From an uncultured Candidatus Saccharibacteria bacterium (GTDB lineage Bacteria; Patescibacteriota; Minisyncoccia; Phycocordibacterales; JAACPR01): a DNA stretch of 64,000 nt. Both the position numbers and the translations under genes were made by a program. The stretch covers positions 314,188 to 378,187 of the forward strand of contig CAZIEY010000001.1 of NCBI GenBank assembly GCA_964538855.1. Reading direction: 5' to 3'. The notes beneath the pieces were generated by a model. That model was not told where the DNA came from and did no database searches. It saw nothing but the letters and a program-made list of their open reading frames with translations. This document shows, in pieces, positions 37,159 through 53,373 of the stretch; the first letter of the stretch is position 1; each line of letters starts with the position of its first letter.

Positions 37159-37344
37159 ATGAGAACTTTAATTAATTATTTTAAGGAGACAAAAGAAGAG
37201 ATGAGTCACGTCAGCTGGCCGACTCGACGTCAGACCGTGAATTACACTGTGCTCGTGGTAGTGATCGCGGTTTTCATCGCAGCATTTTTAGGAGTTTTTG
37301 ACGCACTCTTCACAAAGATTATTGGAATGTTTGTAAGCTTCTAA
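37159..37344 (+). CDS. secE: Preprotein translocase subunit SecE
   Basis: 61 aa with a single TM helix. Position immediately upstream of nusG-rplK. Confidence 0.75.
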   Translation: MRTLINYFKETKEEMSHVSWPTRRQTVNYTVLVVVIAVFIAAFLGVFDALFTKIIGMFVSF

Positions 37345-37348
37345 ATAT

Positions 37349-37948
37349 ATGGATACTCCTACAAATTCAGGTGAAAACACAGTTCAAAGCGTGAATACAA
37401 ATACAGTAAAACAGCAATCTGCACGTGATCGAAATTGGTATGCGATTCACACATATGCTGGATATGAAAATGCGGTGGCGAAAAACTTGCAACAACGTGT
37501 GGAATCTTTGGCGATGGAAAATTTCATCTTTAATGTGCTCGTGCCGATGGAAAAGAAAATCAAAATCAAAGCCGGCAAACGTGTCGAGGTTTCTGAAAAG
37601 ATTTACCCAGGTTATGTACTCGTGGATATGATTGTGAATGATGATTCTTGGTATGTCGTTCGAAACACACCTCGTGTAACAGGGTTCGTTGGTTCTGGTG
37701 TGCATCCTGTGCCACTTTCTCAGAAAGAAGTCGACGCATTGTTTGCTCGAATGAACACCGATATGGCAAAACACAAGATCGATATCATAGTTGGGGAAGT
37801 AATTGTGATCACTGATGGTCCATTCAAGGAATTAGAAGGTCGAGTTGAAGAAGTCGACGAAGAACGCGGTAAGGTCAAAGTCAACGTTTCAATGTTCGGT
37901 CGAGAAACACCAGTTGAGATTGACTTCTTGCAAGTTAAGAAGATTTAA
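37349..37948 (+). CDS. nusG: Transcription termination/antitermination factor NusG
   Basis: NGN domain NWYAIHTYAGYENAV. KOW motif GEVIVITDGPFKELEGRVEEVD. Confidence 0.9.
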   Translation: MDTPTNSGENTVQSVNTNTVKQQSARDRNWYAIHTYAGYENAVAKNLQQRVESLAMENFIFNVLVPMEKKIKIKAGKRVEVSEKIYPGYVLVDMIVNDDSWYVVRNTPRVTGFVGSGVHPVPLSQKEVDALFARMNTDMAKHKIDIIVGEVIVITDGPFKELEGRVEEVDEERGKVKVNVSMFGRETPVEIDFLQVKKI

Positions 37949-37973
37949 TATAGTATAAGCGAACCACAAAAAT

Positions 37974-38399
37974 ATGGCTAAAAAAATTCAAAAAGTAATT
38001 AAAGTTCAAGCGATTGGCGGGCGCGCAACGCCAGCTCCACCACTAGGTCCTGCACTCGGTCAGGCCGGTGTTAACATTGGTGAATTCGTCAAGATTTTCA
38101 ACGATGCTACTCGCGACCGTATGGGTGAAATCGTTCCAACAATCGTAACAGTATTCGAGGATCGAACATTCAAACTCGCATACAAACAAGCCCCCGCGTC
38201 TCGGATGATTCTCAAGGAGCTTGGTTTGGAAAAAGGCTCAAGCACTAATGCCACAAAGAAAGTCGGCAAAATCACAAAGGCTCAAATCCGCAAAATCGCA
38301 GAACAAAAAATGGTTGACCTTTCAGCAGCTTCTGTCGAAACAGCAATGAAGACAATCGAAGGAACTTGCCGATCTATGGGTATTGAAGTGAAGGGGTAG
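37974..38399 (+). CDS. rplK: 50S ribosomal protein L11
   Basis: KVQAIGGRATPAPPLGPALGQAGVNI... is the L11 signature. Confidence 0.9.
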   Translation: MAKKIQKVIKVQAIGGRATPAPPLGPALGQAGVNIGEFVKIFNDATRDRMGEIVPTIVTVFEDRTFKLAYKQAPASRMILKELGLEKGSSTNATKKVGKITKAQIRKIAEQKMVDLSAASVETAMKTIEGTCRSMGIEVKG

Positions 38400-38405
38400 T
38401 AGTGT

Positions 38406-38527
38406 TAAAAAATAAAAGAGTTAAAATTTTGAAAGTCTGGTTGAGCATCAACACAAAACGCACATTCATTTCTAAACGTGTGTGATGCGACCCGAGGACT
38501 TCAAAATTTTAACTCTTTTATTTTTTG
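38406..38527. repeat. ~120-nt palindromic structured intergenic element, copy B (inverted orientation relative to copy A)
   Basis: Outer stem aaaagagttaaaattttgaa/ttcaaaattttaactctttt. Core gtctggttgagcatcaacacaaaacgcac...gtgatgcgacccgaggac matches the reverse complement of copy A. Flanking A- and T-runs. Confidence 0.7.
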
Positions 38528-39085
38528 CTATACTATACCCATTACTACTTAATTAATTTTATGAGAAAAATAGCCGATATATCAGCGTTTGTATTTATTT
38601 GTGCGATGGCAATATTGAGCATTGTTGCGATTTTTGGTGTGTGGGACGTGTTTGCGCAGGATGTTATTGAAAAGTCTTTCAAAACAATGGGACTTCTCGC
38701 ATTCTTTTCAGTCGTGATCTTGATTGCAGAAAAATTCGTTGCAGTCGATGAGACAGAATCGGCGGGCGGTGCACCTCACGATGTGACATTGTTTACAACG
38801 ACTCGTTTGACGACTGTAGTCGTGTTGATTATTTCCGCTGCAGTGCTCGCGTTTTTAGGGGTACTCTCTATCTGGGAGGTGTTTTCTTCAGAAGTCGTGT
38901 GGAAGAGTGTTACGTCGCTTGGAATTGTTGCCTTTTCTTCTGCGATTATCTCTGCGCTTTGTCTCAAGCGTGAAAATCATCCAATGCTAAAGAATGGTGC
39001 ATTCAAAATGTCTGGTCCTACTGCTTTCGTTGCGCTCGTCGTGTTTGTGTGGATTGCAGTAGCCTTTATCGGTATGTTGTTCTAG
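38525..39085 (+). CDS. Membrane protein with internal tandem duplication
   Basis: Two homologous halves: AILSIVAIFGVWDVFAQDVIEKSFKTMGLLAFFSVVILIAE and AVLAFLGVLSIWEVFSSEVVWKSVTSLGIVAFSSAIISALC. Confidence 0.45.
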   Translation: MLYYTHYYLINFMRKIADISAFVFICAMAILSIVAIFGVWDVFAQDVIEKSFKTMGLLAFFSVVILIAEKFVAVDETESAGGAPHDVTLFTTTRLTTVVVLIISAAVLAFLGVLSIWEVFSSEVVWKSVTSLGIVAFSSAIISALCLKRENHPMLKNGAFKMSGPTAFVALVVFVWIAVAFIGMLF

Positions 39086-39087
39086 GG

Positions 39088-39591
39088 TTACCTTTCTAGC
39101 ACCACAAACTCATATGCAAAATTATCGTCTTTCGACATGCGTCGGGAGACGATTTTGCTAAAACGCGATTCATATTCTGGGAAAGTGACTGATCCTGCGA
39201 TGTCTGTATTAACGAGCGTTAGGTATAGACGATCGGCGAAGGGAAGTCCGGCCGTATAAATTTGTCCGCCACCGATGATGAAGATTTCACCAGAATCAAT
39301 TTTTGATCCCCATGCAATCGCTTCTTCGATAGAGTGGGCAATAATGACACCTTCTGGTGCGTTGTAATCTTCCTGTCGCGTGACCACGATGTGCGTGCGA
39401 CCTGGCAATAATTTCCCGCCAAATTCCTCGAATGTGGTGCGACCCATGATCATCGGGTGACCCATAGTTGTTTCCTTGAAATGTTTGAAATCCTCAGGAA
39501 TATGCCACGGTAAATGCCCGCCTTCTTTGCCGATGACACGGCTCGTGCGGCCAATTGCGGCGATGAGGCTGATTCGTGGATTGTTTGACAT
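39088..39591 (-). CDS. folA: Dihydrofolate reductase
   Basis: ISLIAAIGRTSRVIGKEGGHLPWHIPEDFKHFKETTMGHPMIMGRTTFE matches FolA. Start chosen at MSNNPR to avoid overlap with the upstream gene. Confidence 0.8.
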   Translation of the reverse strand: MSNNPRISLIAAIGRTSRVIGKEGGHLPWHIPEDFKHFKETTMGHPMIMGRTTFEEFGGKLLPGRTHIVVTRQEDYNAPEGVIIAHSIEEAIAWGSKIDSGEIFIIGGGQIYTAGLPFADRLYLTLVNTDIAGSVTFPEYESRFSKIVSRRMSKDDNFAYEFVVLER

Positions 39592-39592
39592 G

Positions 39593-40267
39593 CTAATTTC
39601 TAATTTCCCAGTCCTTATCAAGTCTAGGCAACATCATAGTAGGATTCCAAGCCTTTTTCATTTCTTTCAAGTTAGTCGTCGAATTATATTTACCTGATTT
39701 ATTATAATCGTTACTGATGATTTCTCCTGTCTCAAAGAAAATAATCTGAGCGATACGACGTCCGACTACAAGGGGGATAGTGTAACTTTTAGAGTTATTG
39801 GTAATTTCCATTGTCCATCGATTTACATAACCGACATCGCCCCATCCGGCACATTTACAGACTTCGATAAAACTACGACCGAGAGATGAGCGAGCTTTCA
39901 TCATAGTCGTGATGTGATCCTTGCCCCCGATAAATTCGTTGGTGTGAGCGAGAATTGTTTCACCAGGTTCGAGCAAAATAACCTTGTCAGTCGGCTTCAT
40001 GTTTTTAAATTCAAAATTGAAGTTTTGAAATGCCTCCTTTGCGGTCATTGCTCTGTGGAATTTTGTACCCCAAACACGATCGATGTGATTTTTGTCCCAG
40101 ATGTTATAAATTTTATTGTGATATTTATCAGGAATCTGCTCGCGGAAATAATATTCTCCGAGTGTTACATCGTAACTTGAGGTCGCGAGGTTTCTCCTGT
40201 TAAAAGGTTCAATAATAATTTCTCCCTTTTTCTTCGCTTCTAGAATTTTTTTATCAGATAGTGCCAT
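39593..40267 (-). CDS. dCTP deaminase family protein (Dcd-like, extended)
   Basis: N-terminus MALSDKKILEAKKKGEIIIEPF...SSYDVTLG resembles dCTP deaminase/dUTPase. Sits in a thyA-folA cluster. Confidence 0.55.
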   Translation of the reverse strand: MALSDKKILEAKKKGEIIIEPFNRRNLATSSYDVTLGEYYFREQIPDKYHNKIYNIWDKNHIDRVWGTKFHRAMTAKEAFQNFNFEFKNMKPTDKVILLEPGETILAHTNEFIGGKDHITTMMKARSSLGRSFIEVCKCAGWGDVGYVNRWTMEITNNSKSYTIPLVVGRRIAQIIFFETGEIISNDYNKSGKYNSTTNLKEMKKAWNPTMMLPRLDKDWEIRN

Positions 40268-40304
40268 ATGAGCATTGTACATTTTTCAACAACTCGCGCA
40301 ACCT

Positions 40305-41222
40305 CTAAACGGCAATTGGGGCCTTGATTGTGGGGTGAGGGTCATATCCAACGAGTTTAAAATCTTCTGAAGTAAACGCGAATAGGTCAGTAACTTGTGG
40401 ATTAATAACGAGTTTTGGTAGTGTTTTGAAATCTCGCGACAACTGCTCCTTAACTTGTTCGTAGTGATTTTGATATATATGTACATCACCACCAGTCCAT
40501 ATAAATTCATCGGCTTCAAGTCCAGCGATCTGTGCCACCATCATAAGGAGAAGGGAGTACGATGCGATGTTGAAAGGTACTCCTAAAAATGTGTCGCAGG
40601 ATCTCTGGTAGAGTTGGAGTGATAATTTTTTGTTGTAAACCTTGAATTGGAAAAGACAGTGACATGGCGGCAATCCGGCTTTTGCCATTTCATCAATTTG
40701 TGCTGGGTTCCATGCAGATACAATGATACGCCGACTGTCCGGAGAATTTTTAAGTTGATCGATTACATTTTGCAATTGGTCAATTTTCTTTCCGTCTGGA
40801 GTTGGCCACGATCGCCATTGAAATCCATACACAGGTCCGAGATCGCCCCACTTTTTATTGAAGGCTTCGTCTGATATTATTTTTTCGGTAAACGTTTTTA
40901 GTTGTACATTCCATTCGTCGCTATTTGTTTTTGGAATCGGAAGATTTTCTGCTTTTAGATACCATTTGAAAGGCCACTCATCCCAGATGTGCACGTTTTT
41001 TTCGAGAAGTGATTTAAGTTTCGTGTCGCCCTTGATGAACCATAGCAATTCCTCGAGGATGATGCGGAAAGGAATTTTCTTGGTAGTGAGGAGAGGGAAG
41101 CCATCTTTCATCTTGAAACGCATCTGATATCCGAACACAGATTTTGTGCCGGTGCCAGTCCGGTCTGTGGTAACTTCACCAGTTTCCATTATGTGGCGCA
41201 ATAAATCGTGGTATTGTCTCAT
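40305..41222 (-). CDS. thyA: Thymidylate synthase (ThyA type)
   Basis: [16 protein letters not shown] and [10 protein letters not shown] (active-site Cys) motifs. Confidence 0.9.
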
Positions 41223-41308
41223 ATTGTTTTTTTGGGTTTATAATTCTCCACTGAAGTATAACAAAATCAAGGTATGGAGTGCATCTATTTTGTGGTACCA
41301 TATTTTGT

Positions 41309-42508
41309 ATGAAAGACATCAAAATTGCTGCCCTTATAAAGAAAGAAGCTGCGCGCCAGAAAAAAGCGATTAACCTTATCCCATCAGAAAATTATTGTTC
41401 GCGTGATTGTTTGGACGCGCTTGGGTCTGTGTTTGATAATAAATATGCCGAAGGGTATCCACGTGCCAGATATTACGGCGGTCAGGAATTTACGGACGAA
41501 GTAGAAGAGTTGTGTCAGGCTCGCGCGTTGAAATTGTTTGGGCTTGGTGCGAATGAGTGGCATATGAACGTGCAGCCGTGGAGCGGGGCGAATGCGAATC
41601 TCGCGGTGTATCTCGGGCTTGTGCCAATCGGCGGCAAAATCATGGGACTCGAATTGTCGTCAGGAGGGCACTTGTCGCATGGCCAGAAGGTCTCCATCAC
41701 AGGCAAAGCTTGGGCTCGTGTCCCATACACAGTTAATGCGCAGACAGAATTGCTCGATTACGAAGAGCTCATGAAAATTGCTATGACTGAAAAACCAGCG
41801 CTCATCGTGTGCGGATTTACGGCGTATCCACGTATTGTTGATTGGAAAAAGTTCCGTGAAATCGCAGATGCATGTGGAGCAATTTTGATGGCAGACATGT
41901 CACACATCGCAGGTCTCATTGCAGGTGGCGCGTATCCTTCACCATTTCCATTTGTTGATGTTGCAACCACGACAACGCACAAAACTCTGCGAGGTCCACG
42001 CGCCGCGATGATCTTCACAAAGATTGACGCACGAGAGTTCCACAAAAAAGTAGACAAGGCTCTTTTCCCGGGCTTGCAAGGTGGCCCGCACATGAGCCAA
42101 ATCGCGGCAGTCGCTGTCGCACTCGGCGAGGCGCTTTCTCCAAAATTTAAATCCTACGCAAGACAGGTAGTAAAAAATGCACAGGCGCTCGCGAGCGAAT
42201 TAGGCAAACTAGGTTGGAGAATCGTCTCTGGTGGAACAGACTCGCATTTGATTTTGGTTGATACTTGGATGGGTGGTGTGCGCGACGCAAATGGTCGTGG
42301 TGGCATGCCCGGCAAAGACGCCGAAGCACTTCTCGAAAAAGCCGGTATTATTTGTAACAAAAATACTATTCCAGGAGAAACTCGCAGTGCGTTCGATCCA
42401 TCAGGAATTCGCCTCGGAAGCCCAGCTGAAACCACTCGTGGTGCAAAAGAAAAACAATTCCGCGCGATTGCACAGAAGATCGACAAGGTGTTACGAAATG
42501 TAAAATAA
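41309..42508 (+). CDS. glyA: Serine hydroxymethyltransferase
   Basis: LIPSENYCS. TTTTHKTLRGPR (PLP lysine). Start set at MKDIKIA. Confidence 0.9.
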   Translation: MKDIKIAALIKKEAARQKKAINLIPSENYCSRDCLDALGSVFDNKYAEGYPRARYYGGQEFTDEVEELCQARALKLFGLGANEWHMNVQPWSGANANLAVYLGLVPIGGKIMGLELSSGGHLSHGQKVSITGKAWARVPYTVNAQTELLDYEELMKIAMTEKPALIVCGFTAYPRIVDWKKFREIADACGAILMADMSHIAGLIAGGAYPSPFPFVDVATTTTHKTLRGPRAAMIFTKIDAREFHKKVDKALFPGLQGGPHMSQIAAVAVALGEALSPKFKSYARQVVKNAQALASELGKLGWRIVSGGTDSHLILVDTWMGGVRDANGRGGMPGKDAEALLEKAGIICNKNTIPGETRSAFDPSGIRLGSPAETTRGAKEKQFRAIAQKIDKVLRNVK

Positions 42509-42513
42509 AAAAT

Positions 42514-43191
42514 ATGAAAAAACGCGGACTATTTATTGTTGTCGAGGGAACAGATGGATCTGGAAAGGGGACGCAAGTTCGGCTATTGGTCGACAAATTA
42601 GTTGCAGAAGGACGCGCCGTTGAAATGTTGGATTTTCCTCAGTATGAATTGCCGTCATCTTTTTTTGTACAGAAATATTTGCGTGGTGAATATGGGACTG
42701 CCGAAGAAGTCGGAGCACAACGCGCTTCTATTTTTTACGCACTTGATCGGTATGATAAATCGTTCGATGTAAAGCGCTTTCTTAAAGAAGGTAAGATCGT
42801 TATCAGTAATCGGTATGTGTCTGCGAACATGGGCCATCAGACAGCCAACATAAAAGGCAAGTCAAAAAGAGATGAGTTTTTGAAATGGCTTCATGATTTG
42901 GAATATAAATTATTTGGAATTCCACAACCAGATGCGACCATTTTTCTCCATGTAGAACCAGAAATCGCGCAACAGATGGTGGACAAAAAAATTCCGCGCG
43001 CTTACATTAGGGGACAAAAGCGCGATCTCCTCGAGGCGGATTTGGATCACCTTACAAAGGCTTCTGAAGCTTACAAATATGTGGCCAAAAAATATAAGTG
43101 GAAAACTATTGAGTGCGTGAAGGGTGACACGATGCTCCCGATCGAAGAAATCCATCAAAAAATTTACGGTGTGGTCAAGAAGCTAATGTAA
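42514..43191 (+). CDS. tmk: Thymidylate kinase
   Basis: FIVVEGTDGSGKGTQ P-loop and DRY-like segment. Confidence 0.8.
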   Translation: MKKRGLFIVVEGTDGSGKGTQVRLLVDKLVAEGRAVEMLDFPQYELPSSFFVQKYLRGEYGTAEEVGAQRASIFYALDRYDKSFDVKRFLKEGKIVISNRYVSANMGHQTANIKGKSKRDEFLKWLHDLEYKLFGIPQPDATIFLHVEPEIAQQMVDKKIPRAYIRGQKRDLLEADLDHLTKASEAYKYVAKKYKWKTIECVKGDTMLPIEEIHQKIYGVVKKLM

Positions 43192-43216: not shown

Positions 43217-43639
43217 ATGAAATTAAAGATCAAAAAGATGAATCCTGCCGCGGTTATTCCCAAATATGCGTATGCTGACGATGCGGCTTTTGATTTGTTT
43301 TCTATTGAAACCATTACGATTGAACCAGGCGCGCGGGTTCAAATACCGACTGGGATCGCTATGCAGATTCCTACTGGTCATGTGGGAATGATTTGGGACA
43401 AGAGTGGTCTTTCACATAATTTCGGTTTGAAAGTGATGGGCGGAGTGATTGATTCCGGATATCGCGGGGAAATCAAGGTCGGCATGATCAACCTCAGTAC
43501 CGAGCCATATACCGTAGAAAAGGGGCACAAGATTACTCAGATGGTCATTCAGCAGAAAGAGACTTGTGAAATTGAAGAAGTGTCAGAGCTCGAAGATAGT
43601 CACCGCGGTACGTCTGGTTTTGGAAGTTCTGGAAAATAA
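43217..43639 (+). CDS. dut: dUTP diphosphatase
   Basis: AGFDLFS-like ADDAAFDLFS, GVIDSGYRGEI, and C-terminal RGTSGFGSSG motifs. Confidence 0.85.
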   Translation: MKLKIKKMNPAAVIPKYAYADDAAFDLFSIETITIEPGARVQIPTGIAMQIPTGHVGMIWDKSGLSHNFGLKVMGGVIDSGYRGEIKVGMINLSTEPYTVEKGHKITQMVIQQKETCEIEEVSELEDSHRGTSGFGSSGK

Positions 43640-43640
43640 A

Positions 43641-45377
43641 ATGATTGAAATCGAAAAGAAGATCAGAAAAATAATCGAAGCAGCATTTGAAGGGACTGAA
43701 ATCAGCCTAGTTGATTTTATTGTGGAACACCCAGCGGAACTTTCGCATGGAGATTATTCGACAAACGTGGCGCTAGTCGTCGCAAAACAGTTGAAGGCAA
43801 AACCAACTGACGTTGCGAAATTGCTCGTTGAAAAAATGAGCAAGACTTTGCCGCCAGAAATTACCGCGATTTCTTTTGCAGGTCCGGGCTTCATCAATTT
43901 TTCGCTCGCGCCAGATTTTTTTAGAAAAAGCCTCGCGGAAATTCTTGATCAAGAAGAATCGTTCGGGAAAAACAAAAATCTCGCAGGTAAAAAAGTTGTG
44001 ATTGAATACACCGATCCGAATCCATTCAAGGTTTTTCATATTGGACATCTCATGGCAAACACAGTCGGAGAAATTATGTCACGTCTGCTCGACTGGAGTG
44101 GTGCGCATGTGACACGCGTGTGTTATCAGGGTGACGTTGGTTTGCACATTGCAAAATCGTTGTGGGGTGTACTTAAAACTATTGATACATTTCCAGCGGA
44201 AACGGCGCCTTTGTCAGTAAAGACAAAATATTTAGGCGATGCATACGTACTCGGTTCTACACAATATGAAAACGATGTAACCGCAAAATCAGAAATCGAA
44301 ATTATCAACAAAAAAGTGTATGATTTTTTTGATGAAAAAGTAACCACTGATCCTGAATTGGAACGTCTCTACGAAATCGGCAAAAAATGGAGTATGCAAC
44401 ATTTCGATGAAATTTATGCAAAGCTCGGAACACACTTCAATCATTTTGTTGGAGAAAGTTCTGTTGCTGGTGCCGCGCTTGAAATTGTTCGCAAAAATGT
44501 TGGACCTGTTTTTGAAGAGAGTAACGGCGCGATTGTGTATAAAGGTGAACAAGATGGTCTGCATACGCGTGTGTTTATCAATAGCCTTGGTTTGCCGACA
44601 TATGATGCAAAAGAAATCGGACTTGCGTTTCGTAAAGAAAAGCTCGGGTCTTTTGATACATCGATTGTCATTACTGCATCTGAACAACAAGAATATTTCA
44701 AGGTGGTGATGGCTGCACTTGCAAAAATCGAACCTAAAATTGCAGCAAAAACTCAACACATCACCCACGGTATGATGCAATTTGCCGATGGAAAGATGTC
44801 ATCTCGAAAAGGGAATATAATCAGCGGCGATGGATTGCTCGATGAATTGGCGGATGTGGTTGGTGAAAAAGTCGCTGATCGAAGTTTTGAAATTGCTGAG
44901 GCTGATGAAATCAAAACGATGATTGCAGTGGCGGCTCTCAAATATTCGGTGCTCAAACAATCACCCGGAAAGAATATTATTTTTGATCGCGACAAGGCAC
45001 TTTCATTTGAGGGGGATTCCGGTCCTTACATTCAATATTCATGTGTGCGCGCGAAATCGGTGCTCGAAAAAGCTCACGATAGAAAACTGATACCGAATCC
45101 GCACAAATTGCCAGATGGATGGGTGACACGACCGCTTGAGAAAATGTTGTATCGATTTCCAGAATTGGTCGAGAAAGCTCTCACCGAGGTTGCCCCTCAA
45201 AATATTGTGACATATGTGACGCACATCGCGAGCGAGTTCAATAGTTTTTATGCAAACGAACAAGTCATGGATGGTACTGCCGCCGAAGGGTATCGCCTCG
45301 CCATTGTACGCGCCACATTAACCGTCATGGCAAATTGTCTCGCGATTATGGGTGTGCGTATTCCAAAGAGGATGTAA
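43641..45377 (+). CDS. argS: Arginine--tRNA ligase
   Basis: HIGH-type motif FHIGHLMAN and C-terminal anticodon-binding domain. Start set at MIEIEKK directly after the dut stop. Confidence 0.9.
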   Translation: MIEIEKKIRKIIEAAFEGTEISLVDFIVEHPAELSHGDYSTNVALVVAKQLKAKPTDVAKLLVEKMSKTLPPEITAISFAGPGFINFSLAPDFFRKSLAEILDQEESFGKNKNLAGKKVVIEYTDPNPFKVFHIGHLMANTVGEIMSRLLDWSGAHVTRVCYQGDVGLHIAKSLWGVLKTIDTFPAETAPLSVKTKYLGDAYVLGSTQYENDVTAKSEIEIINKKVYDFFDEKVTTDPELERLYEIGKKWSMQHFDEIYAKLGTHFNHFVGESSVAGAALEIVRKNVGPVFEESNGAIVYKGEQDGLHTRVFINSLGLPTYDAKEIGLAFRKEKLGSFDTSIVITASEQQEYFKVVMAALAKIEPKIAAKTQHITHGMMQFADGKMSSRKGNIISGDGLLDELADVVGEKVADRSFEIAEADEIKTMIAVAALKYSVLKQSPGKNIIFDRDKALSFEGDSGPYIQYSCVRAKSVLEKAHDRKLIPNPHKLPDGWVTRPLEKMLYRFPELVEKALTEVAPQNIVTYVTHIASEFNSFYANEQVMDGTAAEGYRLAIVRATLTVMANCLAIMGVRIPKRM

Positions 45378-45428
45378 AACAAAAGCGCGTGTGGTGCGCG
45401 CTCTGGTCGAGTGGATTTTTATCTCACT

Positions 45429-45755
45429 CTACAATTTCTTTATAGTTCTCTCCATCAACCGCCACACACCATACAGTATGCCAAGAGCAAATACCACAAG
45501 TCCGCTCAGACATACCGCGACGCCGATTCTCTCTGGTAAGTGCGGTGAAATTAGGGCGGCAGCTATTCCTAGACTCATCGGCGTTTGAGCCTCGGGCATC
45601 ATGATGCCAAAGACCAGGACATGTAGCGCAATGAACATTAAGAAGAGTATCACTGGCCAGTCAGTATCATCCATGGGGATGAACTTTCGAGCGAGTAATA
45701 TTCCAGCCATGGCAACGATTACACTCGCAACGATCTTTGATTTGTTTTTCATCAC
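45429..45755 (-). CDS. Small hypothetical membrane protein
   Basis: 108 aa with three predicted TM helices. Confidence 0.4.
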   Translation of the reverse strand: MMKNKSKIVASVIVAMAGILLARKFIPMDDTDWPVILFLMFIALHVLVFGIMMPEAQTPMSLGIAAALISPHLPERIGVAVCLSGLVVFALGILYGVWRLMERTIKKL

Positions 45756-45818
45756 ATTCTCCTAAAACGGGTTTCGGTTGGGTTGGTCTAATGGAGAGTT
45801 TATACTTTTTTGTATTAT

Positions 45819-45847
45819 TTGCAATACAGGTAAAAGCTCTTTAAAAT
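45819..45847 (+). promoter_or_regulatory. Sigma-70-like promoter upstream of ileS
   Basis: TTGCAA, a 17-nt spacer, then TAAAAT. Confidence 0.45.
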
Positions 45848-45874
45848 TTCTAAAAAAATGCTAATATCATACCC

Positions 45875-48800
45875 ATGAAGCAAAAAAATGAACAGGCTTT
45901 GAAGAAGCCTGAAAACGGTCCTGATATGACCGGTCAGAAACACTCTGAGAATCGCGGAAAAAGCGAAATAGCATTATTAGAAGAAAACGTATTAAAATTT
46001 TGGCAGGATAGTGATATTTTTAAAAAGTCAGTCGAGCGCGATGCACCTCGAGGTGAATTCGTCTTTTATGATGGGCCTCCGTTTGCGACTGGTGTGCCAC
46101 ACTACGGTCACATTTTGGCCGGAATTTTGAAAGATGCAATTCCACGATATCAAACCATGCGCGGTCATCGCGTCGAGCGTCGCTGGGGTTGGGACTGTCA
46201 CGGCTTGCCGATCGAAAAATTGGTGCAAGACGAACAAAAGTTGAATACGAAAAAAGATATTGAAAACTTCGGTATCAAAAATTTCAATGCCGCCGCAAAA
46301 GCGACAGTTTTCCGCTACGACAAAGAATGGAAGGAAGTCATTCCGCGCACTGGTCGATGGGTCGACATGGAAAACAGCTACACAACTATGGACGCCTCTT
46401 TCTCCGAATCTGTTATGTGGGCTTTCAAAAATTTGTACGACAAGGGCTTGGTCTACGAAGATTTCAAAACGATGCACATTTCGCCGCCGCTTGAAACTCC
46501 ACTTTCAAACTTTGAAGTAAATCAAAATTACAAAGACATTACGGATATTTCTGTGTATGTGAAATTCGAACTCAAGGACGAGCCGAATACATTTGTGATT
46601 GCGTGGACGACAACACCGTGGACTCTGCCAGGGAACGTGGCGCTCGCGGTTGGAGCAGAGATTGAATATGTGGAAGTAAAATATAATTTCAAAGATGTGG
46701 GCGAACAAAATTACATTGTCGCAAAAGATCGTCTTGCACACGTATTTAAAAACAAAGAATACAGTATTGTTGCAGAATTAAAAGGCACCGACCTCGTTGG
46801 AAAATCATACAAACCCGTCTTTGATTATTATGCAAAAAATCAGACACTTGAAAATCGTGAAAACGGTTGGAAGATTTACGCTGCAGATTTCGTCACGACG
46901 ACTGATGGTTCTGGCGTGGTACATATTGCGCCTGCATTCGGTGAAGATGACTTGAATTTGGGCAAGGCAAATAACTTGCCATTCATACAGCACGTAAACA
47001 TTGACGGTACGATCAAAGCCGAAGTGACTGATTTTGCTGGTCGCCAAGCGAAACCAAAAGCAACTAAAGAAAATCCGAATGCTCATCAAGAGACCGACAT
47101 TGAAGTTGTGAAATATCTCGCGCATCACAGCTCATTATTTGAGAAAGAAAAGTTCACTCACTCATATCCACATTGTTGGAGAACTGATGCGCCACTTTTG
47201 AATTACGCGTTGTCGTCATGGTTTGTTCGTGTGACTGATTTCCGCGACAAGATGGTTAAATTAAATGCAAAAGTAAAGTGGGTTCCCGAAGCAGTGGGGG
47301 AGAAGCGCTTTGGAAATTGGCTCGAAAATATAAAAGACTGGGGAATTTCACGTTCTCGATTTTGGGGAACTCCGATTCCAGTTTGGCAGTCAGAGGACAA
47401 AACCGAGACTGCTGTACTTGGGTCGCTCGAAGAAATTCGTGAAAAAACTCGCGGCACAAATACTTATTTTGTGATGCGTCATGGCGAGGCAGAGCACAAC
47501 ATCAAGCACGTATTGAATTCTGATAATTCTACACCGAGCCACTTGACTGAAAACGGAAAAAATAAAGTACTCAAAACTGCCGAGAATCTGAAGTCGAAAA
47601 AAATCGATCTTATTATTGCGTCGCCCCTCATTCGTACGAAAGAAACCGCTGAATTGGTTGCCGGAGTATGCGGCATTTCCAAAGACTCGATCCTTTATGA
47701 CGATCGAATCCAAGAAGTGCAGGGAGGTACAATGAATGGCTCAACTTCGGAACAGTATGCGAAGTTATTTCCGAATGTAATTGATAAATTTACGGTTACA
47801 CCAGAAGGAGGTGAAAATATATCTGACGTAAAAAAACGCGCTGGGGATTTCATATATGAAATCGATAGGAAATATCAGGGTAAAACTATACTCGTAGTTA
47901 CGCATGAATACGTGATGTGGATGCTCGATTCGGTGCGTCTCGGTTTGACTAATAAAAACGCGTCTCTTCTCAAGGAAAAAAGTGTTGATTATGTCCCAAC
48001 ATCTCACTTGGTGCAATTTGATTTTGCGCCGATTCCGCATAACGACGATTATGAATTGGATTTTCACCGACCATTTATCGACGACGTGACGTTTATGCAG
48101 GCCGGTAAAAAGATGACGCGCATCAAGGATGTCTTCGATACGTGGTTTGATTCTGGTTCAATGCCATTTGCGATTAATCACTATCCGTTCAAAAAGGATG
48201 CGTTTAATCCGGGCGGTCTTTTGACCAAGAGCAAGGGTTTTCCTGCGGATTTTATTGCCGAAGGTCTCGATCAGACGCGCGGATGGTTTTATACATTACT
48301 CGCGCTCAATACTGCGCTCTTTGGAAAAGCCCCATATAAAAACGTGGTGGTGAATGGACTCGTGCTTGCCGAAGATGGCCGCAAAATGTCAAAGCGTCTT
48401 AAAAATTATCCGGATGTAGATGTGGTGCTTAATAAATATGGTGCGGATGCCTTGCGTTACTACATGATTTCGTCGCCAATTGTGCGATCAGAGCCACTTA
48501 ATTTTTCGGAGAAGGGTATCGATGAAGTTGTTAAAAAAATCACCAATCGCCTCCTCAACGTCGTTTCGTTCTACAAAATGTATGGAGCAGAGGAACATGC
48601 GGAAAGCGATGTTCGACCAGGCGGAGATAATCCACTCGATAATTGGATCTTGAATCGCCTTTCAGAGGTTGCTGAAGCTATGACAAAGGGGATGGATCAG
48701 TACGAATTAGATCGCGCATCTCGTCCAATTTTTGATTTCGTCGATGATTTGTCAACGTGGTATGTGCGTCGCTCCCGTGATCGTTTCAAGGATGCGGATA

Positions 48801-49477
48801 TGGCGGACAAAAATATTGCCACAAAGACACTCGCGTATGTTTTGATTAATTTAGCGAAATTGATGGCGCCTTTCATGCCTTTCTTGGCAGAAAAAATCTA
48901 TCAGGAAATTTCCGGAGCGAATTTTACTTCTGCCGATAAAAGCGTCCATCTGTTAGACTGGCCAAAATTGGCGAAGTCAGATGCAGATGTTGTCGTACAA
49001 ATGCAAAAAGTCCGCAATATCGTCGCGGTGTCTCTCGAAGCCCGTGACCGTGCAGCGATAAAAGTGCGCCAACCTCTCGCAACTCTAACTTTGTCTTCTG
49101 AATTTTCTAAAGTGACTGCCGGGCTAGTTGAAATCATCAAAGACGAAGTGAACATTAAAACGGTCGCGTTTGACGCTTCTCTAAAATCGGATGAAGTGCG
49201 CCTCGATACAGTTTTGACTGAAGAATTAAAATCAGAAGGTGTCGCGCGGGATCTCATTCGCCACATTCAATCGATGCGAAAGGATAAGAAGCTCGAACCG
49301 TCCGATGTGATCGAATTAAAAATCGCAACTGACGAAGCCAGCAAAAAAGTTCTCGCTGCATTCGAATCTGAAATCAAAAAAACGGTGAATGCAAAAGCAA
49401 TTGCGTATAGATCGCCAATCGAAAAATCCGATGCAACTTGTACTTCGGGAATACATTCTTTCGATGTGACTTTCTAA
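45875..49477 (+). CDS. ileS: Isoleucine--tRNA ligase (type 2, eukaryote/archaeal-like) carrying an inserted histidine-phosphatase-like domain
   Basis: HIGH motif PHYGH and KMSKR. 1200 aa; residues ~529-705 (YFVMRHGEAEHN...LVVTHEYVMW) are not part of canonical IleS. Confidence 0.9.
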   Translation: MKQKNEQALKKPENGPDMTGQKHSENRGKSEIALLEENVLKFWQDSDIFKKSVERDAPRGEFVFYDGPPFATGVPHYGHILAGILKDAIPRYQTMRGHRVERRWGWDCHGLPIEKLVQDEQKLNTKKDIENFGIKNFNAAAKATVFRYDKEWKEVIPRTGRWVDMENSYTTMDASFSESVMWAFKNLYDKGLVYEDFKTMHISPPLETPLSNFEVNQNYKDITDISVYVKFELKDEPNTFVIAWTTTPWTLPGNVALAVGAEIEYVEVKYNFKDVGEQNYIVAKDRLAHVFKNKEYSIVAELKGTDLVGKSYKPVFDYYAKNQTLENRENGWKIYAADFVTTTDGSGVVHIAPAFGEDDLNLGKANNLPFIQHVNIDGTIKAEVTDFAGRQAKPKATKENPNAHQETDIEVVKYLAHHSSLFEKEKFTHSYPHCWRTDAPLLNYALSSWFVRVTDFRDKMVKLNAKVKWVPEAVGEKRFGNWLENIKDWGISRSRFWGTPIPVWQSEDKTETAVLGSLEEIREKTRGTNTYFVMRHGEAEHNIKHVLNSDNSTPSHLTENGKNKVLKTAENLKSKKIDLIIASPLIRTKETAELVAGVCGISKDSILYDDRIQEVQGGTMNGSTSEQYAKLFPNVIDKFTVTPEGGENISDVKKRAGDFIYEIDRKYQGKTILVVTHEYVMWMLDSVRLGLTNKNASLLKEKSVDYVPTSHLVQFDFAPIPHNDDYELDFHRPFIDDVTFMQAGKKMTRIKDVFDTWFDSGSMPFAINHYPFKKDAFNPGGLLTKSKGFPADFIAEGLDQTRGWFYTLLALNTALFGKAPYKNVVVNGLVLAEDGRKMSKRLKNYPDVDVVLNKYGADALRYYMISSPIVRSEPLNFSEKGIDEVVKKITNRLLNVVSFYKMYGAEEHAESDVRPGGDNPLDNWILNRLSEVAEAMTKGMDQYELDRASRPIFDFVDDLSTWYVRRSRDRFKDADMADKNIATKTLAYVLINLAKLMAPFMPFLAEKIYQEISGANFTSADKSVHLLDWPKLAKSDADVVVQMQKVRNIVAVSLEARDRAAIKVRQPLATLTLSSEFSKVTAGLVEIIKDEVNIKTVAFDASLKSDEVRLDTVLTEELKSEGVARDLIRHIQSMRKDKKLEPSDVIELKIATDEASKKVLAAFESEIKKTVNAKAIAYRSPIEKSDATCTSGIHSFDVTF

Positions 49478-49478
49478 C

Positions 49479-50060
49479 ATGAATCATATTTATCAAACTC
49501 GTGGTTATGTCCTGGCCCATTTCCCGAGTGGGGAATACAACAAACAATTGGTCATTTTGACCGAGCAATTTGGTGTTATTCGTGTGACTGCTCAAGCGGT
49601 CCGTAAAATCGAGTCCAAGCTGCGCACTTCGATTCAGGATTATTCTTATGCAGAATTTTTTCTGGTGCATGGTAAGGGTGGGTGGCGCTTGATTAACACA
49701 ACACAGACTGGAAACTTGTATACTGAAATTACCAAGGAAAGCTTTCCTATGTTTGCGAGAATTTTTTCACTCATCACGAGACTAATTCCAGAGGAAGATA
49801 ATGTGAGCAGGGTTTTCTCTGTGATCGATGAGGCAGTGAAATTTGTGAAAGAACATGAAATTTCTTCGGCAGAATGTGAACACTTGGAAATTCTTGTCGA
49901 TACAAAGATTTTGTTTGACTTGGGGTATATTGAACATCATAGTGAGATTATGAAATCAATCTCAGGAGAAATCACCAGGGACGCTCTTGCGCACATCGGA
50001 TCCAATAAAAGGGAAGCCCTCAAGATTGTGAACCAAGCGATACGAGAAAGCCATCTTTAG
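49479..50060 (+). CDS. recO: DNA repair protein RecO-like (short)
   Basis: N-terminal OB-fold pattern RGYVLAHFPSGEYNKQLVILTEQFGVIRVTAQAVRK...FFLVHGKGGWRL, then a helical domain. Confidence 0.5.
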   Translation: MNHIYQTRGYVLAHFPSGEYNKQLVILTEQFGVIRVTAQAVRKIESKLRTSIQDYSYAEFFLVHGKGGWRLINTTQTGNLYTEITKESFPMFARIFSLITRLIPEEDNVSRVFSVIDEAVKFVKEHEISSAECEHLEILVDTKILFDLGYIEHHSEIMKSISGEITRDALAHIGSNKREALKIVNQAIRESHL

Positions 50061-50071
50061 TGGTATAATTT

Positions 50072-51982
50072 TTGGATATGGAAGATCACAAAAGCCGAAT
50101 TGAACGGGTTCAGCAAAAATTGGACTCGCAAAATTTTCACCCAATTCATGAGGAATTTGTCCTACATGAAAAAGAATATAATTTAAAACCGGATTGGCAG
50201 GAAAACCCTGGGCCAGATTATAAGCCGGGAATCATAGAAAAGATTGGGCTTTTTCGGATATTTCTCGGAGCTGCATTCGTCTTTTTCCTCGGCTCACTTG
50301 CGTATGCCGGATTTATCTTTACTCGTGATAATCAACCAACGAGAGGGGATGATGTAACAATTACTGTTGTTGGACCTGTTTCTGTTGGAGGCGGCGAGAA
50401 ATTATCTGTCGATGTTTTAATTCAAAATAATAATGTGGTACCGGTCGAATTAGCTGATTTGGTTGTTGATTTCCCCGAGGGAACAAAGAGCTCTGATGAC
50501 CTTGCAACCGATATTCGTCATACCCGAGAGGACCTCGGGACAATTGAATCTGGCGCAGTAATTCGTCGTACTATCAATGCGGCACTTTTTGGAGAAGAGA
50601 ATTCCACAAAGACAATTACGGTTGGAACGGACTATCGTGTTCAGGGTTCAACTGCAATTTTTGAAAAACGAAAAAGTTTCGACATCGTCTTGAACGCTTC
50701 ACCAATTCGTCTGACTGTCGAAGCGCTTCGTGAAATTTCGGCGGGTCAAGCACTTGAATTAAAAGTCAAAATTGTTTCAAATTCGAGCAAGCGCCTCGAG
50801 AATGTGATGCTTACCGCAAGCTATCCTTTTGGTTTTATGTTCCAAGATTCCAATATTAAACCTTCATTTGATAAAAATGTGTGGCTGTTTGCCGGTCTCA
50901 ATCCAAAAGAGGAGCAGACTATCGTGATTAGGGGTATTATCGAGGGGCAAAATTCCGAAGATCGTTTCTTCAGATTTAATTCTGGAATTGCCAAGGAGAA
51001 TTCCGCCTCAGAATTGGGTGTTATTTTTAATAGCACGACCCATCTCACTACTATCCAAAAGTCTTTCATTGATTTAGCTCTTGTGGTCAATGGCACCGAA
51101 GGGGAAAATCTTTACATGACGAGTGAGGATGGTGCGAACGGGGAATTGGTCTTTTCAAATAATACTAATGACATGATTCGCGATGTGCGTATCGACATGG
51201 AAATTCTCGGATCTGCGATTGATAAAAAGAGCGTCACGGTTGAGAAGGGTTTCTATAATTCAGGAACCAACATGATTAGTTGGAGCTCAGAGACTGACAG
51301 TGAATTCCAAGTGATGAATCCACGCGATACCTTACGCGTACAATTCAGATTTAATTCACTTAACTTTTCATCTGGCGCGTACAACACCAGAAATCCAGAA
51401 ATAAAATTGCGGGCTGGTGTGACAGGAAAACGAGTTTCTGGTAATAATGTCCAAGAAGAGATCGAGACTATTGCAAGTGCGAATATTCGTATTCAGTCCG
51501 ATGTGCCGATTCTTGCGTATACTGCACACGCAGACGGCGTCTTTACTAATAGCGGGCCGATTCCACCTCGGGTTGAGCAAGAGACAACTTATACCATTGC
51601 ATATCAGGTTTCTAATAATAGTAATGAATTACGCAATGCAAAAATAGAAGGAGTTTTACCGTCGTATGTTTCCTGGAATAATTTGGTTCAACCGGAAAGT
51701 GAAATTGTTACCTTTGATTATCAAACTAGGAAATTTACTTGGAACATCGGCACTATTACGCCGGGGGCAGGTTTTGGTCAAAAAGCCGAAACGCTTTCTT
51801 TCAAAGTTACGTTATTACCAAGTGCAAGTCAGATTGGTAGTGCGCCAGATCTCGTCAGGAATTCGGTGTTCACTGCTACAGACTTGTTCACAAATACTAC
51901 TATTACAAAGGCGGTTCCTCCTATTACAACAAAGATCTACAATCAACCTATTGGAAATAATCATCAAAATGTGGTTGAATAG
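50072..51982 (+). CDS. Hypothetical single-pass surface protein with repeated beta-sandwich-like modules
   Basis: N-terminal cytoplasmic segment, one TM (IGLFRIFLGAAFVFFLGSLAYAGFIF), and a large extracytoplasmic region. Confidence 0.45.
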   Translation: MDMEDHKSRIERVQQKLDSQNFHPIHEEFVLHEKEYNLKPDWQENPGPDYKPGIIEKIGLFRIFLGAAFVFFLGSLAYAGFIFTRDNQPTRGDDVTITVVGPVSVGGGEKLSVDVLIQNNNVVPVELADLVVDFPEGTKSSDDLATDIRHTREDLGTIESGAVIRRTINAALFGEENSTKTITVGTDYRVQGSTAIFEKRKSFDIVLNASPIRLTVEALREISAGQALELKVKIVSNSSKRLENVMLTASYPFGFMFQDSNIKPSFDKNVWLFAGLNPKEEQTIVIRGIIEGQNSEDRFFRFNSGIAKENSASELGVIFNSTTHLTTIQKSFIDLALVVNGTEGENLYMTSEDGANGELVFSNNTNDMIRDVRIDMEILGSAIDKKSVTVEKGFYNSGTNMISWSSETDSEFQVMNPRDTLRVQFRFNSLNFSSGAYNTRNPEIKLRAGVTGKRVSGNNVQEEIETIASANIRIQSDVPILAYTAHADGVFTNSGPIPPRVEQETTYTIAYQVSNNSNELRNAKIEGVLPSYVSWNNLVQPESEIVTFDYQTRKFTWNIGTITPGAGFGQKAETLSFKVTLLPSASQIGSAPDLVRNSVFTATDLFTNTTITKAVPPITTKIYNQPIGNNHQNVVE

Positions 51983-51987
51983 TCTGT

Positions 51988-53373
51988 ATGAAAAAGACAG
52001 ACACACAAAATAATGTAATGGAGGAAATTATCTCGCTTGCAAAACGCCGTGGGTTTATTTTCCAAGGCTCTGAAATTTACGGTGGTCTCGCTGGTACATG
52101 GGATTACGCGCCTCTTGGTGTCGCTCTCAAAAACAATATTAAAAATTTGTGGTGGAAGCGTTTTGTGTCTGATCGCGAAGATATGTACGGAATGGACGCT
52201 GCGATTTTGATGAATCAAAATGTCTGGAAGGCGAGTGGTCACGTGGATACGTTTGCCGATCCTCTCGTTGAAGATTTAAAGACAGGTCGACGATATCGCG
52301 CTGATCATCTTCTTGAAGCTAACAATATTGATCCAAAAGGTATGAAATTGGCTGATATGGATGCGGCAATTAAAAAACACGGCATTAAGAGTCCTGACGG
52401 TCATCCTGTTGGGGAAGTTCGTCAATTTAAAATGATGTTCAAGACTCATGTTGGTGCTATCGAAGACGACACTTCTATCTCATATCTTCGCCCTGAAACT
52501 GCGCAGGGTATGTTTGTGAACTTTAAAAATATCGTCGACACATTTCATCCGAAATTGCCGTTTGGTATGGCACAAATTGGTAAAGCTTTCCGTAATGAAA
52601 TTGCACCTCGTGATTTTACATTCCGTACTCGCGAATTTGAACAAATGGAAATTGAATATTTCGTGGCGCCATCTGATTGGGAAAAAATCTTTGAACATTT
52701 CCGACAACAAGTACATGCGTTCACTGATGACGTCGGTCTGCCAAAAGAAAAAGTCCACGAATTAGAAATTGCAAAAGAAGATTTGGCTCACTATTCAAAA
52801 CGAACTATCGATTTCGAATTTGATTATCCATTTGGTAAAAAAGAACTCTACGGTTTGGCATATCGAACTGATTTCGACTTAAAAGCGCATGCCGACAAAT
52901 CGACAGTGGACCTTTCGTATTTCGACGAAGAAGCAAAAACACGATTCGTGCCACATTGTATCGAACCTTCATTTGGTGTTGATCGAACCGTGCTTGCAGT
53001 ACTCACTGATGCCTACACAGAAGACAGTATGGCTGGCGAAAAACGTGTGTTCTTGAAATTCAAGCCGAGCGTCGCTCCGGTGAAAGTCGCTGTGTTTCCA
53101 CTTCTCAAAAACAAACCAGACCTCGTAACAAAAGCTCGCGAAGTCTACAATCAAATTCGCAAAGCTATTCCTCAAACAATGTTTGATGACAACGGAAATA
53201 TCGGTAAACGATATCGACGTCAGGATGAAATTGGTACACCACTTTGTGTGACTGTTGATTTCGAAACGATTGAACAGGGAACAGGTGTCACTGTGCGCGA
53301 CCGCGATTCTGGAAAACAAGAACGTGTGTCTCTCGAAAATCTCGTATCGTATTTACTCGAAAAACTAAACTAA
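51988..53373 (+). CDS. glyQS: Glycine--tRNA ligase (alpha2 dimeric, GlyQS type)
   Basis: N-terminus RGFIFQGSEIYGGLAGTWDYAPLGV and class II motifs. Confidence 0.9.
   Translation: MKKTDTQNNVMEEIISLAKRRGFIFQGSEIYGGLAGTWDYAPLGVALKNNIKNLWWKRFVSDREDMYGMDAAILMNQNVWKASGHVDTFADPLVEDLKTGRRYRADHLLEANNIDPKGMKLADMDAAIKKHGIKSPDGHPVGEVRQFKMMFKTHVGAIEDDTSISYLRPETAQGMFVNFKNIVDTFHPKLPFGMAQIGKAFRNEIAPRDFTFRTREFEQMEIEYFVAPSDWEKIFEHFRQQVHAFTDDVGLPKEKVHELEIAKEDLAHYSKRTIDFEFDYPFGKKELYGLAYRTDFDLKAHADKSTVDLSYFDEEAKTRFVPHCIEPSFGVDRTVLAVLTDAYTEDSMAGEKRVFLKFKPSVAPVKVAVFPLLKNKPDLVTKAREVYNQIRKAIPQTMFDDNGNIGKRYRRQDEIGTPLCVTVDFETIEQGTGVTVRDRDSGKQERVSLENLVSYLLEKLN

Follow-up and report, generated by a model that had tools for sequence, protein, structure and literature searches.

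A histidine phosphatase domain nested within a type-2 isoleucyl-tRNA synthetase of Patescibacteria

The ileS gene and its inserted block

The window analysed here is a stretch of 64,000 nucleotides from an assembly labelled uncultured Candidatus Saccharibacteria bacterium (GCA_964538855.1, contig CAZIEY010000001.1, positions 314,188 to 378,187 of the forward strand), and all coordinates below refer to it. It carries an ileS gene whose product, an isoleucyl-tRNA synthetase (IleRS) of the type-2 (eukaryote-like) class, contains a complete domain of the histidine phosphatase superfamily nested within its catalytic core (Table 1). A first-pass annotation, made from the sequence alone, had described a 1200-residue IleS at 45875-49477. 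The open reading frame (ORF) was confirmed exactly, and its product scored above threshold with the ileS profile TIGR00392 (878.1 bits against a cut-off of 621.4, E 7e-264). The Pfam tRNA-synt_1 match on this protein was broken in two by a match to PF00300 (His_Phos_1), which covered aa 532-695 and profile positions 2-165 of 194 at 104.1 bits, compared to a gathering cut-off of 21.7. The proposal that the extra block harbours a histidine phosphatase was thereby upheld by a strong profile match (E 9.8e-30).

The limits of the block were examined in an alignment to the Saccharomyces cerevisiae enzyme (ScIleRS), where residues 35-526 of the window protein correspond to ScIleRS 13-493 and residues 729-1100 to ScIleRS 499-884. 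From this break in the alignment, the inserted block is placed at aa 527-728 (about 200 residues), where it stands in place of a five-residue surface loop (ScIleRS 494-498). The junctions read EKTRG/TNTYF and DDYEL/DFHRP. The segment YFVMRHGEAEHN lies at aa 531-542 and LVVTHEYVMW at aa 673-682, and the flanking IleRS segments WGISRSRFWGTPIP and DTWFDSGS are found at aa 489-502 and 755-762, respectively. The first-pass annotation had estimated an excess of 150-250 residues in one contiguous block. Insert-free relatives measure 950-1085 aa, so that the window protein does exceed them by about 200 aa, all in a single block. The range given for it, 47455-47990, does fall on the block, but both ends need correction: 47455 is off the codon boundary (codon 528 starts at 47456), and 47990 lies inside the domain.

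In ScIleRS the third connective peptide subdomain (CP3) comprises residues 459-526 (PMC7955072). The insertion therefore lies within CP3, between the first CP3 helix (window aa 518-525) and the DFHRPFID segment, and it is separate from the CP1 editing domain, as had been claimed, with the CP1 motifs located elsewhere and intact. CP3 is the most variable of the connective peptide subdomains; its topology differs among the Candida, Thermus and Staphylococcus IleRS, and among these three a zinc motif in CP3 is confined to the enzyme of Thermus (PMC7191050). The zinc-knuckle cysteines of CP3 (CxxC ... CxC), present in the T. thermophilus enzyme, are gone in the window protein and in its 120 closest homologues (window 47380-47452 and 48059-48130). 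Many relatives, both insert-bearing and insert-free, retain them.

Outside the block, the protein has the domain order of the solved type-2 enzymes with all parts present, as seen in comparison with S. cerevisiae IleRS (7D5C/8WND), Priestia megaterium IleRS2 (8C8U/V) and T. thermophilus IleRS (1ILE). The best sequence matches in the PDB were the type-2 structures 8WND, 7D5C, 8C8U and 1ILE (E 1e-186 to 3e-218), whereas the type-1 structures 8C9E, 1FFY and 8WNF/8WNI were far weaker (E 1e-91 to 3e-72). Foldseek ranked type 2 above type 1 in the same way, with TMt values of 0.8-0.89 to type-2 structures. The AlphaFold 2 (AF2) model of the whole protein had a predicted local distance difference test score (pLDDT) of 90.9 and a predicted TM-score (pTM) of 0.84, with pLDDT values of 92-97 across aa 530-730, linkers included; it matched chain 8WND_A (ScIleRS with tRNA) at TMt 0.82 and P. 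megaterium IleRS2 at 0.81-0.82. Besides WTTTPWT, the second conserved motif of CP1, GxGxVHxAPxxGxxD, is present as GSGVVHIAPAFGEDD at aa 345-359, and the C-terminal part contains matches to Anticodon_1 (aa 922-1069) and DUF5915 (aa 1108-1185). Judged from its sequence, the window gene probably encodes a functional type-2 IleRS, in which all HIGH, KMSKS, editing and anticodon-binding signatures have been kept. What sets it apart from the solved IleRS is the insertion itself: none of them has an enzyme of about 200 residues in CP3, and the longest matched chains are of about 1060 aa.

Two special IleRS families were considered and rejected. The mupirocin-resistance enzymes MupA and MupB (NF000257/NF000258) matched with 657 and 703 bits against a cut-off of 1900, and the GNAT-containing family ileS_w_GNAT (NF040702) with 296 bits against 1999; no acetyltransferase Pfam match was found in the window protein. 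As a separate observation, the model is poor over the first 26 residues (pLDDT under 50), and the alignments of most homologues begin no earlier than about aa 25-35 (window 45875-45960, aa 1 to about 28). The true start may be located downstream of the annotated ATG, with M18 as an alternative, or the protein may have a disordered N-terminal extension.

Table 1. Coordinates of ileS, its parts and the conserved motifs in the window
Feature	Coordinates	Strand	Basis and remarks
ileS, type-2 (eukaryote-like) IleRS with nested phosphatase, 1200 aa	45875..49477	+	ORF list; TIGR00392
IleRS N-terminal part, aa 1-526: first Rossmann half, CP core, CP1 editing domain, CP2, first half of CP3 (beta-hairpin and helix 518-525)	45875..47452	+	Aligns with ScIleRS 13-493; secondary structure from AF2 model
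HIGH signature (HYGH, aa 76-79)	46100..46111	+	H76 and G78 invariant in 120 homologues
CP1 editing-site motif WTTTPWT (aa 244-250)	46604..46624	+	W244, T245-T247, W249 and T250 invariant
Nested histidine phosphatase (branch 1) domain with linkers, aa 527-728	47453..48058	+	PF00300; break in yeast IleRS alignment; isolated fold
RHGEAEHN motif: R535, nucleophile H536, G537, N542	47477..47500	+	All four invariant in 120/120; R and H in 81/81
R587, second phosphate-binding Arg (SPLIR motif)	47633..47635	+	Invariant in 120/120 and 81/81; aligns with PhoE Arg
E614, putative proton donor	47714..47716	+	Invariant in 120/120 and 81/81; aligns with Glu of PhoE LREIHLG
H677, second catalytic His (VVTHEY)	47903..47905	+	Invariant in 120/120 and 81/81
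IleRS C-terminal part, aa 729-1200: second half of CP3, second Rossmann half, stem-contact (SC) fold, anticodon-binding and C-terminal domains	48059..49474	+	Aligns with ScIleRS 499-884 and 972-1051
KMSKS signature (KMSKR, aa 837-841)	48383..48397	+	K837 and K840 invariant in 120 homologues

Fold and catalytic residues of the nested domain

By profile match and modelled fold, the nested domain can be assigned to branch 1 of the histidine phosphatase superfamily and, within it, to the small-molecule class represented by PhoE, PspA and GpgP. Modelled in isolation, the domain reached a pLDDT of 96.4 and a pTM of 0.93, and Foldseek matched it with probability 1.00 and TM-scores of 0.70-0.77 to these three enzymes. 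The best structural matches were PspA (4IJ5), GpgP (4PZ9/6S2Q), PhoE (1H2E) and HFP (9MMH). All of the nearest structures are those of phosphomonoesterases that act on small molecules and have about 200 residues, among which a riboflavin-pathway histidine-family phosphatase, TIGAR and CobC were also found; true mutases were placed below the phosphatases, and none of the top 50 structures was a protein phosphatase of the SixA, Sts or PGAM5 type. The domain aligns over PhoE residues 3-156 with short gaps only, and the cap region is included. Geobacillus PhoE (1EBB/1H2E), PspA and GpgP (Rv2419c) share its fold, its size and the catalytic set R-H-G...N, R, E, H. The sequence matches have E-values of 2e-15 (PhoE) and 1e-11 (PspA), the identity to this group is only 20-28%, and all three enzymes are free-standing, whereas the window domain is nested in another enzyme.

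The first-pass label "PGM/SixA-like" was thus correct as to the superfamily but not as to its members: the domain is neither SixA nor a true phosphoglycerate mutase (PGM) and stands nearer to PhoE, PspA and GpgP. The mutase families dPGM_arch (NF038349; 71.3 bits against a cut-off of 225) and GpmB (PRK03482; 48.7 against 261) were ruled out, as were the phosphoserine phosphatase PspA (NF045917; 59.7 against 350) and the alpha-ribazole phosphatase CobC (TIGR03162; 63.8 against 162.9). No SixA family occurred among the 25 best NCBIfam matches, and the only SixA-like structure, 3F2I, matched weakly, at E 1e-4 over aa 5-70 alone. No NCBIfam equivalog cut-off was reached, and we therefore regard the domain as a distinct subfamily.

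The catalytic residues had been noted in part before, namely the RHGE motif that opens the block and a second His in LVVTHEYVMW. Both were found, together with both Arg residues and the Glu proton donor of the superfamily. Residues R535, H536, G537, R587, E614 and H677 align with the catalytic residues of PhoE. Eleven positions of the domain are invariant among the 120 homologues (R535, H536, G537, N542, S583, P584, R587, E614, E647, R655 and H677), and six of these (R535, H536, R587, E614, R655 and H677) are also invariant across 80 species-representative genomes, whose IleRS cores are 38-68% identical to that of the window; in that alignment G537 is kept in 80 of the 81 sequences. A loss of the catalytic residues, which would have spoken against a phosphatase, was seen in neither set. 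The identity to the window sequence is 49% for the insert, compared to 61% for the rest of the protein. The insert is therefore less conserved overall, and its strict conservation is concentrated at the active site.

Distribution, other insertion sites and gene neighbourhood

All 120 best homologues in a collection of 5.8 billion proteins carry PF00300, at identities from 100% to 55% and lengths of 1147-1268 aa; these homologues originate from NCBI, JGI, ENA and Logan. When one genome per GTDB species was scanned, at least 164 species genomes were found to encode a relative of the insert. The best 80 of these loci were examined, and the domain was nested in frame in 80/80, with the IleRS N-terminal part ending near aa 526 and the C-terminal part starting at aa 729. 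A chimeric assembly, the objection raised in the first pass, is not compatible with the same in-frame architecture in 80 independent genomes and 120/120 homologues. An in-frame insertion in an essential gene is typical of inteins, and this is the sole point in favour of a selfish element. Neither Hint or intein families nor an endonuclease occurred among the Pfam matches of the window protein, and the junction residues (G/T and L/D) provide neither the Cys/Ser start nor the His-Asn end followed by Cys/Ser/Thr; an intein was thus rejected, in agreement with the annotation. A recently inserted mobile element was rejected as well, since no GC discontinuity was found at the junctions and no flanking repeats. 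Taken together, the chance that the block is an artefact or a selfish element is negligible.

The record names of the carrier genomes include Paceibacterota, Parcubacteria, Lloyd-, Nomura-, Zambryski- and Yonath-bacteria, Minisyncoccia and Patescibacteria group. When IleRS proteins were clustered at 50% identity, 102 of the best 150 cluster representatives carried the domain. The other 48, of 950-1085 aa, are insert-free, and the breaks in their alignments fall exactly at aa ~523-526 and at aa 729; such proteins occur under the names Paceibacterota, Peregrinibacteria and Patescibacteria. In a rough neighbour-joining tree of the IleRS core, the insert-free proteins are scattered among the insert-bearing ones, and in seven sister pairs with 59-67% core identity one partner has a segment of 182-204 aa at this loop that is cleanly missing from the other. 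This scatter and the clean sister pairs make repeated loss the simplest reading. The suggestion that the insertion might be lineage-wide therefore holds in the sense that it is widespread, but it is not universal: it seems to have been lost repeatedly, and it is also found at other IleRS loops. As far as sequences tell, the nested domain is an old, widespread and accessory module of Patescibacteria IleRS. The neighbour-joining tree of the domains themselves is star-like and does not separate one origin from several. Free-standing relatives are at most 37% identical to the domain, in a domain-only search that returned 24 proteins and missed the IleRS copies.

Some of the records call for caution. 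One locus labelled Spirochaetia (L065, QYPD01000003.1) carries a Paceibacteria-type ileS, and many third-party annotation (TPA) metagenome-assembled genomes are labelled Saccharibacteria (titles "uncultured Candidatus Saccharibacteria"), yet by their IleRS they fall among the Paceibacteria-type proteins. In both cases the genomes are likely to have been mis-binned or mis-labelled. In a further locus (L033, ~1476-1560), the IleRS C-terminal part is in a different frame from the N-terminal part and the insert, which probably reflects a frameshift, due either to a sequencing error or to a pseudogene.

CP3 is one of three loops of IleRS in which His_Phos domains were found. Site 2 lies at about aa 904/915 of the window protein, where the helix of the SC fold is followed by the anticodon-binding domain; site 3, near aa 771/790, is flanked by the active-site motifs DTWFDSGS and EGLDQTRGWF, as in the Peregrinibacteria protein PCI25629.1. 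Some proteins have two copies, in CP3 and site 2, in sites 3 and 2, or as a tandem pair in CP3. The proteins with domains at other sites or in duplicate are P0167, P0172, P0177, P0186, P0229, P0244, P0248, P0250, P0252, P0256, P0257, P0259 and P0260. The catalytic residues are intact in all copies except that of P0252 at site 3 (E to N), and the CP3 copy of P0247 has a conservative E to D change. Nearly all of the roughly 100 best relatives of one double-phosphatase protein, named Gracilibacteria, Peregrinibacteria and Peribacteria, carry PF00300. Other nested domains occur in some relatives: GNAT, a P-loop kinase (AAA_33/AAA_18/Zeta-toxin type), an alpha/beta serine hydrolase (Ser_hydrolase), a DUF559 endonuclease-like domain and an IS200-type (Y1) transposase. 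Multi-domain IleRS of the Gracilibacteria/Peregrinibacteria type reach 1374-1859 aa (P0244, P0248, P0269, P0303, P0315, P0360, P0361, P0377 and P0383), and in P0360 HAD-family phosphatase domains are found in place of His_Phos. IleRS thus appears to be a hot spot of domain accretion in the Patescibacteria radiation. The other synthetases of the window, namely ArgRS, a class II GlyRS-type synthetase and MetRS, have no extra domain.

These architectures have left a trace in automatic annotation. One relative is named [quoted passage not shown] by JGI, and NCBI lists insert-bearing proteins as "class I tRNA ligase family protein", "GNAT family N-acetyltransferase" or "hypothetical protein". Their insert-free sisters are named "isoleucine--tRNA ligase", which indicates that the nested domain degrades automatic naming.

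The window gene lies in a conserved order (43566-53373): argS, ileS, a recO-like gene (49479-50060), a gene for a 636-aa protein (50072-51982) and the class II GlyRS-type synthetase gene (51988-53373). Among the 80 related loci (L001-L080), the recO-like gene was found in 58, the 636-aa protein in 53, argS in 47 and glyS in 37. Clustering of the ORFs at these loci returned argS, ileS, recO-like, 636-aa protein, glyS, glyA, tmk and dut, with no kinase or toxin. The 636-aa neighbour of ileS has an N-terminal hydrophobic segment and is one of the ORFs without a Pfam family, together with those at 331-3153 (+, 940 aa) and 8351-10120 (+, 589 aa); its own ORF is on the + strand. Elsewhere in the window, a compact folate/dTMP cluster (35332-43191) consists of folD (35332-36162), folA (39088-39621, -), a dCTP deaminase-like gene (39593-40282, -), thyA (40305-41222, -), glyA (41279-42508) and tmk (42514-43191). 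A 341-aa prephenate dehydrogenase/chorismate mutase fusion and, after it, a class I/II aminotransferase are encoded at 13033-15221; with them the genome, otherwise reduced, retains part of the metabolism of aromatic amino acids. Next to tRNA-His, a P-loop protein of 185 aa that stands alone and matches AAA_18 weakly is encoded at 33819-34376 (+); it belongs to the same broad kinase class as the kinases nested in some Gracilibacteria IleRS.

Possible roles of the nested phosphatase

Which function would such a composite protein serve? The reading we favour, to which we assign a probability of about 0.5, is a bifunctional IleRS with an accessory, cis-acting small-molecule phosphatase that is coupled to the synthetase. 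The IleRS part, with all its signatures kept, would charge tRNA-Ile as usual. Given that the whole catalytic set is kept, the nested domain most likely hydrolyses a phosphomonoester via a phospho-His536 intermediate; the phosphoryl group would be held by R535, R587 and H677, and E614 would serve as the proton donor (acid/base). We infer on these grounds that the domain is an active phosphomonoesterase. The PhoE-like pocket with its cap and the slightly acidic surface would suit a small phosphorylated substrate better than protein or structured RNA, and the phosphatase might act in cis on a small phosphorylated compound that is made, bound or met at the synthetase. A nucleotide-type product, pyrophosphate and a phosphorylated inhibitor are candidate substrates. 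The use of three IleRS loops, the duplications and the one case of an unrelated HAD phosphatase point to the physical linkage to IleRS itself as the selected trait, and the neighbouring synthetases of the window, which lack such domains, add to this. The linkage of phosphatase chemistry to IleRS may therefore be under selection.

Several findings weigh against this reading. Sister IleRS with 59-67% core identity are cleanly without the domain, indicating that it is not needed for aminoacylation and that the coupling may be loose. The nested DUF559 and IS200-type domains suggest that IleRS loops are simply permissive to insertions. The HAD replacement rests on a single protein, P0360. The gene neighbourhood across the 80 loci shows only housekeeping synteny and gives no functional hint. 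Finally, we count the mildly acidic character of the domain (mean pI 5.8) on the same side.

The domain could alternatively be an ordinary metabolic phosphatase or mutase that is simply carried by an abundant essential protein in a tiny genome, with no mechanistic link to charging, a reading that we consider less likely but plausible. The passenger could be a phosphoserine phosphatase like PspA, a sugar-acid phosphatase like GpgP, or the PGM reported to be missing in some Parcubacteria. PGM has been described as absent in several shallow Parcubacteria clades (PMC7304191), and this absence would fit a nested substitute, as would dPGM_arch being the second-best NCBIfam match among phosphatase families. 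Structurally the domain comes closest to metabolic small-molecule phosphatases, IleRS can do without it, as its clean presence or absence between sister proteins indicates, and these loops host many unrelated domains. However, the equivalog cut-offs of dPGM_arch, GpmB, PspA and CobC were all missed widely. Chance carriage also does not explain three insertion sites with up to two copies per protein, the HAD phosphatase in the same protein, or the restriction to IleRS among the four synthetases of the window. Moreover, at the one insert-free Paceibacterota ileS locus inspected, no free-standing His_Phos gene was found nearby. An alternative with a closer link to IleRS is that the phosphatase clears a blocking phosphate from the IleRS system and so restores chargeability, the targets being a 3'-phosphate or 3'-pyrophosphate on the tRNA CCA end (added by toxSAS enzymes or left behind by ribotoxins) or a phospho-serine placed in the KMSKS loop by a HipA-type kinase. 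[quoted passage not shown] The relatives that pair the phosphatase with AAA_33/Zeta-toxin-type P-loop kinases, or carry a HAD phosphatase, would fit this proposal, as would the GNAT domains in relatives and the patchy, labile and variable architecture, which suits a conflict-driven accessory function. The pairing of kinase and phosphatase resembles the polynucleotide kinase-phosphatases. The structural neighbours, by contrast, are capped small-molecule phosphatases, with SixA, Sts and PGAM5 outside the best 50, and the domain is acidic; the 80 loci hold no toxin or kinase neighbours, and we know of no histidine-phosphatase-fold enzyme in RNA end healing. PADLOC gave no defence-family match for the insert, so that a known anti-phage defence protein was rejected, and in two multi-domain relatives its matches were marginal and limited to the kinase and endonuclease parts. 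A repair or antidote role is, on balance, unlikely.

The same line of thought can be extended to a self-protecting IleRS hub, in which the nested phosphatase would reverse or pre-empt chemical attack on isoleucine charging. Such attack may take the form of toxin-made CCA 3'-(pyro)phosphates, KMSKS-loop phosphorylation or phosphorylated adenylate-mimic inhibitors, and the kinase, GNAT, alpha/beta-hydrolase and HAD domains of the relatives may then share a protective purpose. This extended version we hold to be improbable too. Still less probable is a module without turnover, acting either as an allosteric sensor that binds a phosphometabolite or as a stabiliser of CP3 that replaces the lost zinc knuckle. 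The CP3 zinc-knuckle cysteines are gone in this clade, and the linkers are conserved and confidently modelled, which suggests a rigid packing on CP3, at least in the model; other insert-bearing IleRS, however, keep these cysteines. The nucleophile His, both Arg, the Glu and the second His are invariant in more than 200 sequences, as is typical of active enzymes, whereas in pseudo-enzymes at least one of the two, nucleophile or acid, has usually been lost. A phosphatase coupled in cis to IleRS therefore remains the interpretation that we prefer.

Precedents for such a composite protein are partial. The curated family ileS_w_GNAT shows that an IleRS can hold an extra enzymatic domain inside its polypeptide, and some relatives of the window IleRS carry GNAT and His_Phos together. 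In the relatives examined, the GNAT domain lies in or near CP1 (about window aa 234-297), or after the first IleRS core block (P0244), and not in CP3. The RNase H/acid phosphatases of the Rv2228c/SCO2299 type (PRK07238) likewise join a nucleic-acid enzyme to a CobC/PhoE-like histidine phosphatase, and PRK07238 is the best match of the window protein among the phosphatase families of NCBIfam (77 bits over aa 522-697, far under the cut-off of 326). These, however, are terminal fusions with a different partner enzyme and a functional coupling that is likewise only putative, whereas the phosphatase of the window IleRS is nested. The leucine-specific domain and other insertions of class Ia synthetases are lineage-specific modules in the catalytic core that are small and non-enzymatic and tune aminoacylation or editing. 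The leucine-specific domain shares with the present insertion its location in the core, but the latter is a complete enzyme of an unrelated superfamily. The closest architectural precedents are therefore the GNAT-containing IleRS and the actinobacterial RNase H/acid phosphatase fusions, neither of which is a phosphatase nested in a synthetase core. The first-pass remark that an IleRS with such a graft is not a described architecture agrees with our literature search, in which no paper describing a phosphatase nested in IleRS was found; journal coverage was partial, and a prior report is possible. The nested arrangement is common in public data and has apparently not been studied before.

Aminoacyl-tRNA synthetases are among the most conserved enzymes, and their known appended domains are mostly concerned with RNA binding, editing or signalling. 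With a catalytically intact enzyme of an unrelated superfamily placed in its core, IleRS would represent a bifunctional synthetase of a new type. Ultra-small, host-dependent bacteria have retained the domain throughout a large radiation, and it has been recruited at three loops. Metabolic reconstructions of these organisms that count PF00300 matches as PGM may be misled by it. If the phosphatase acts on a product or ligand of the synthetase, it would reveal an unrecognised link between tRNA charging and phosphoryl chemistry, whether by product removal, nucleotide recycling, detoxification of inhibitors or repair of tRNA ends, and this link may also bear on the physiology or the conflicts of bacteria from the candidate phyla radiation (CPR).

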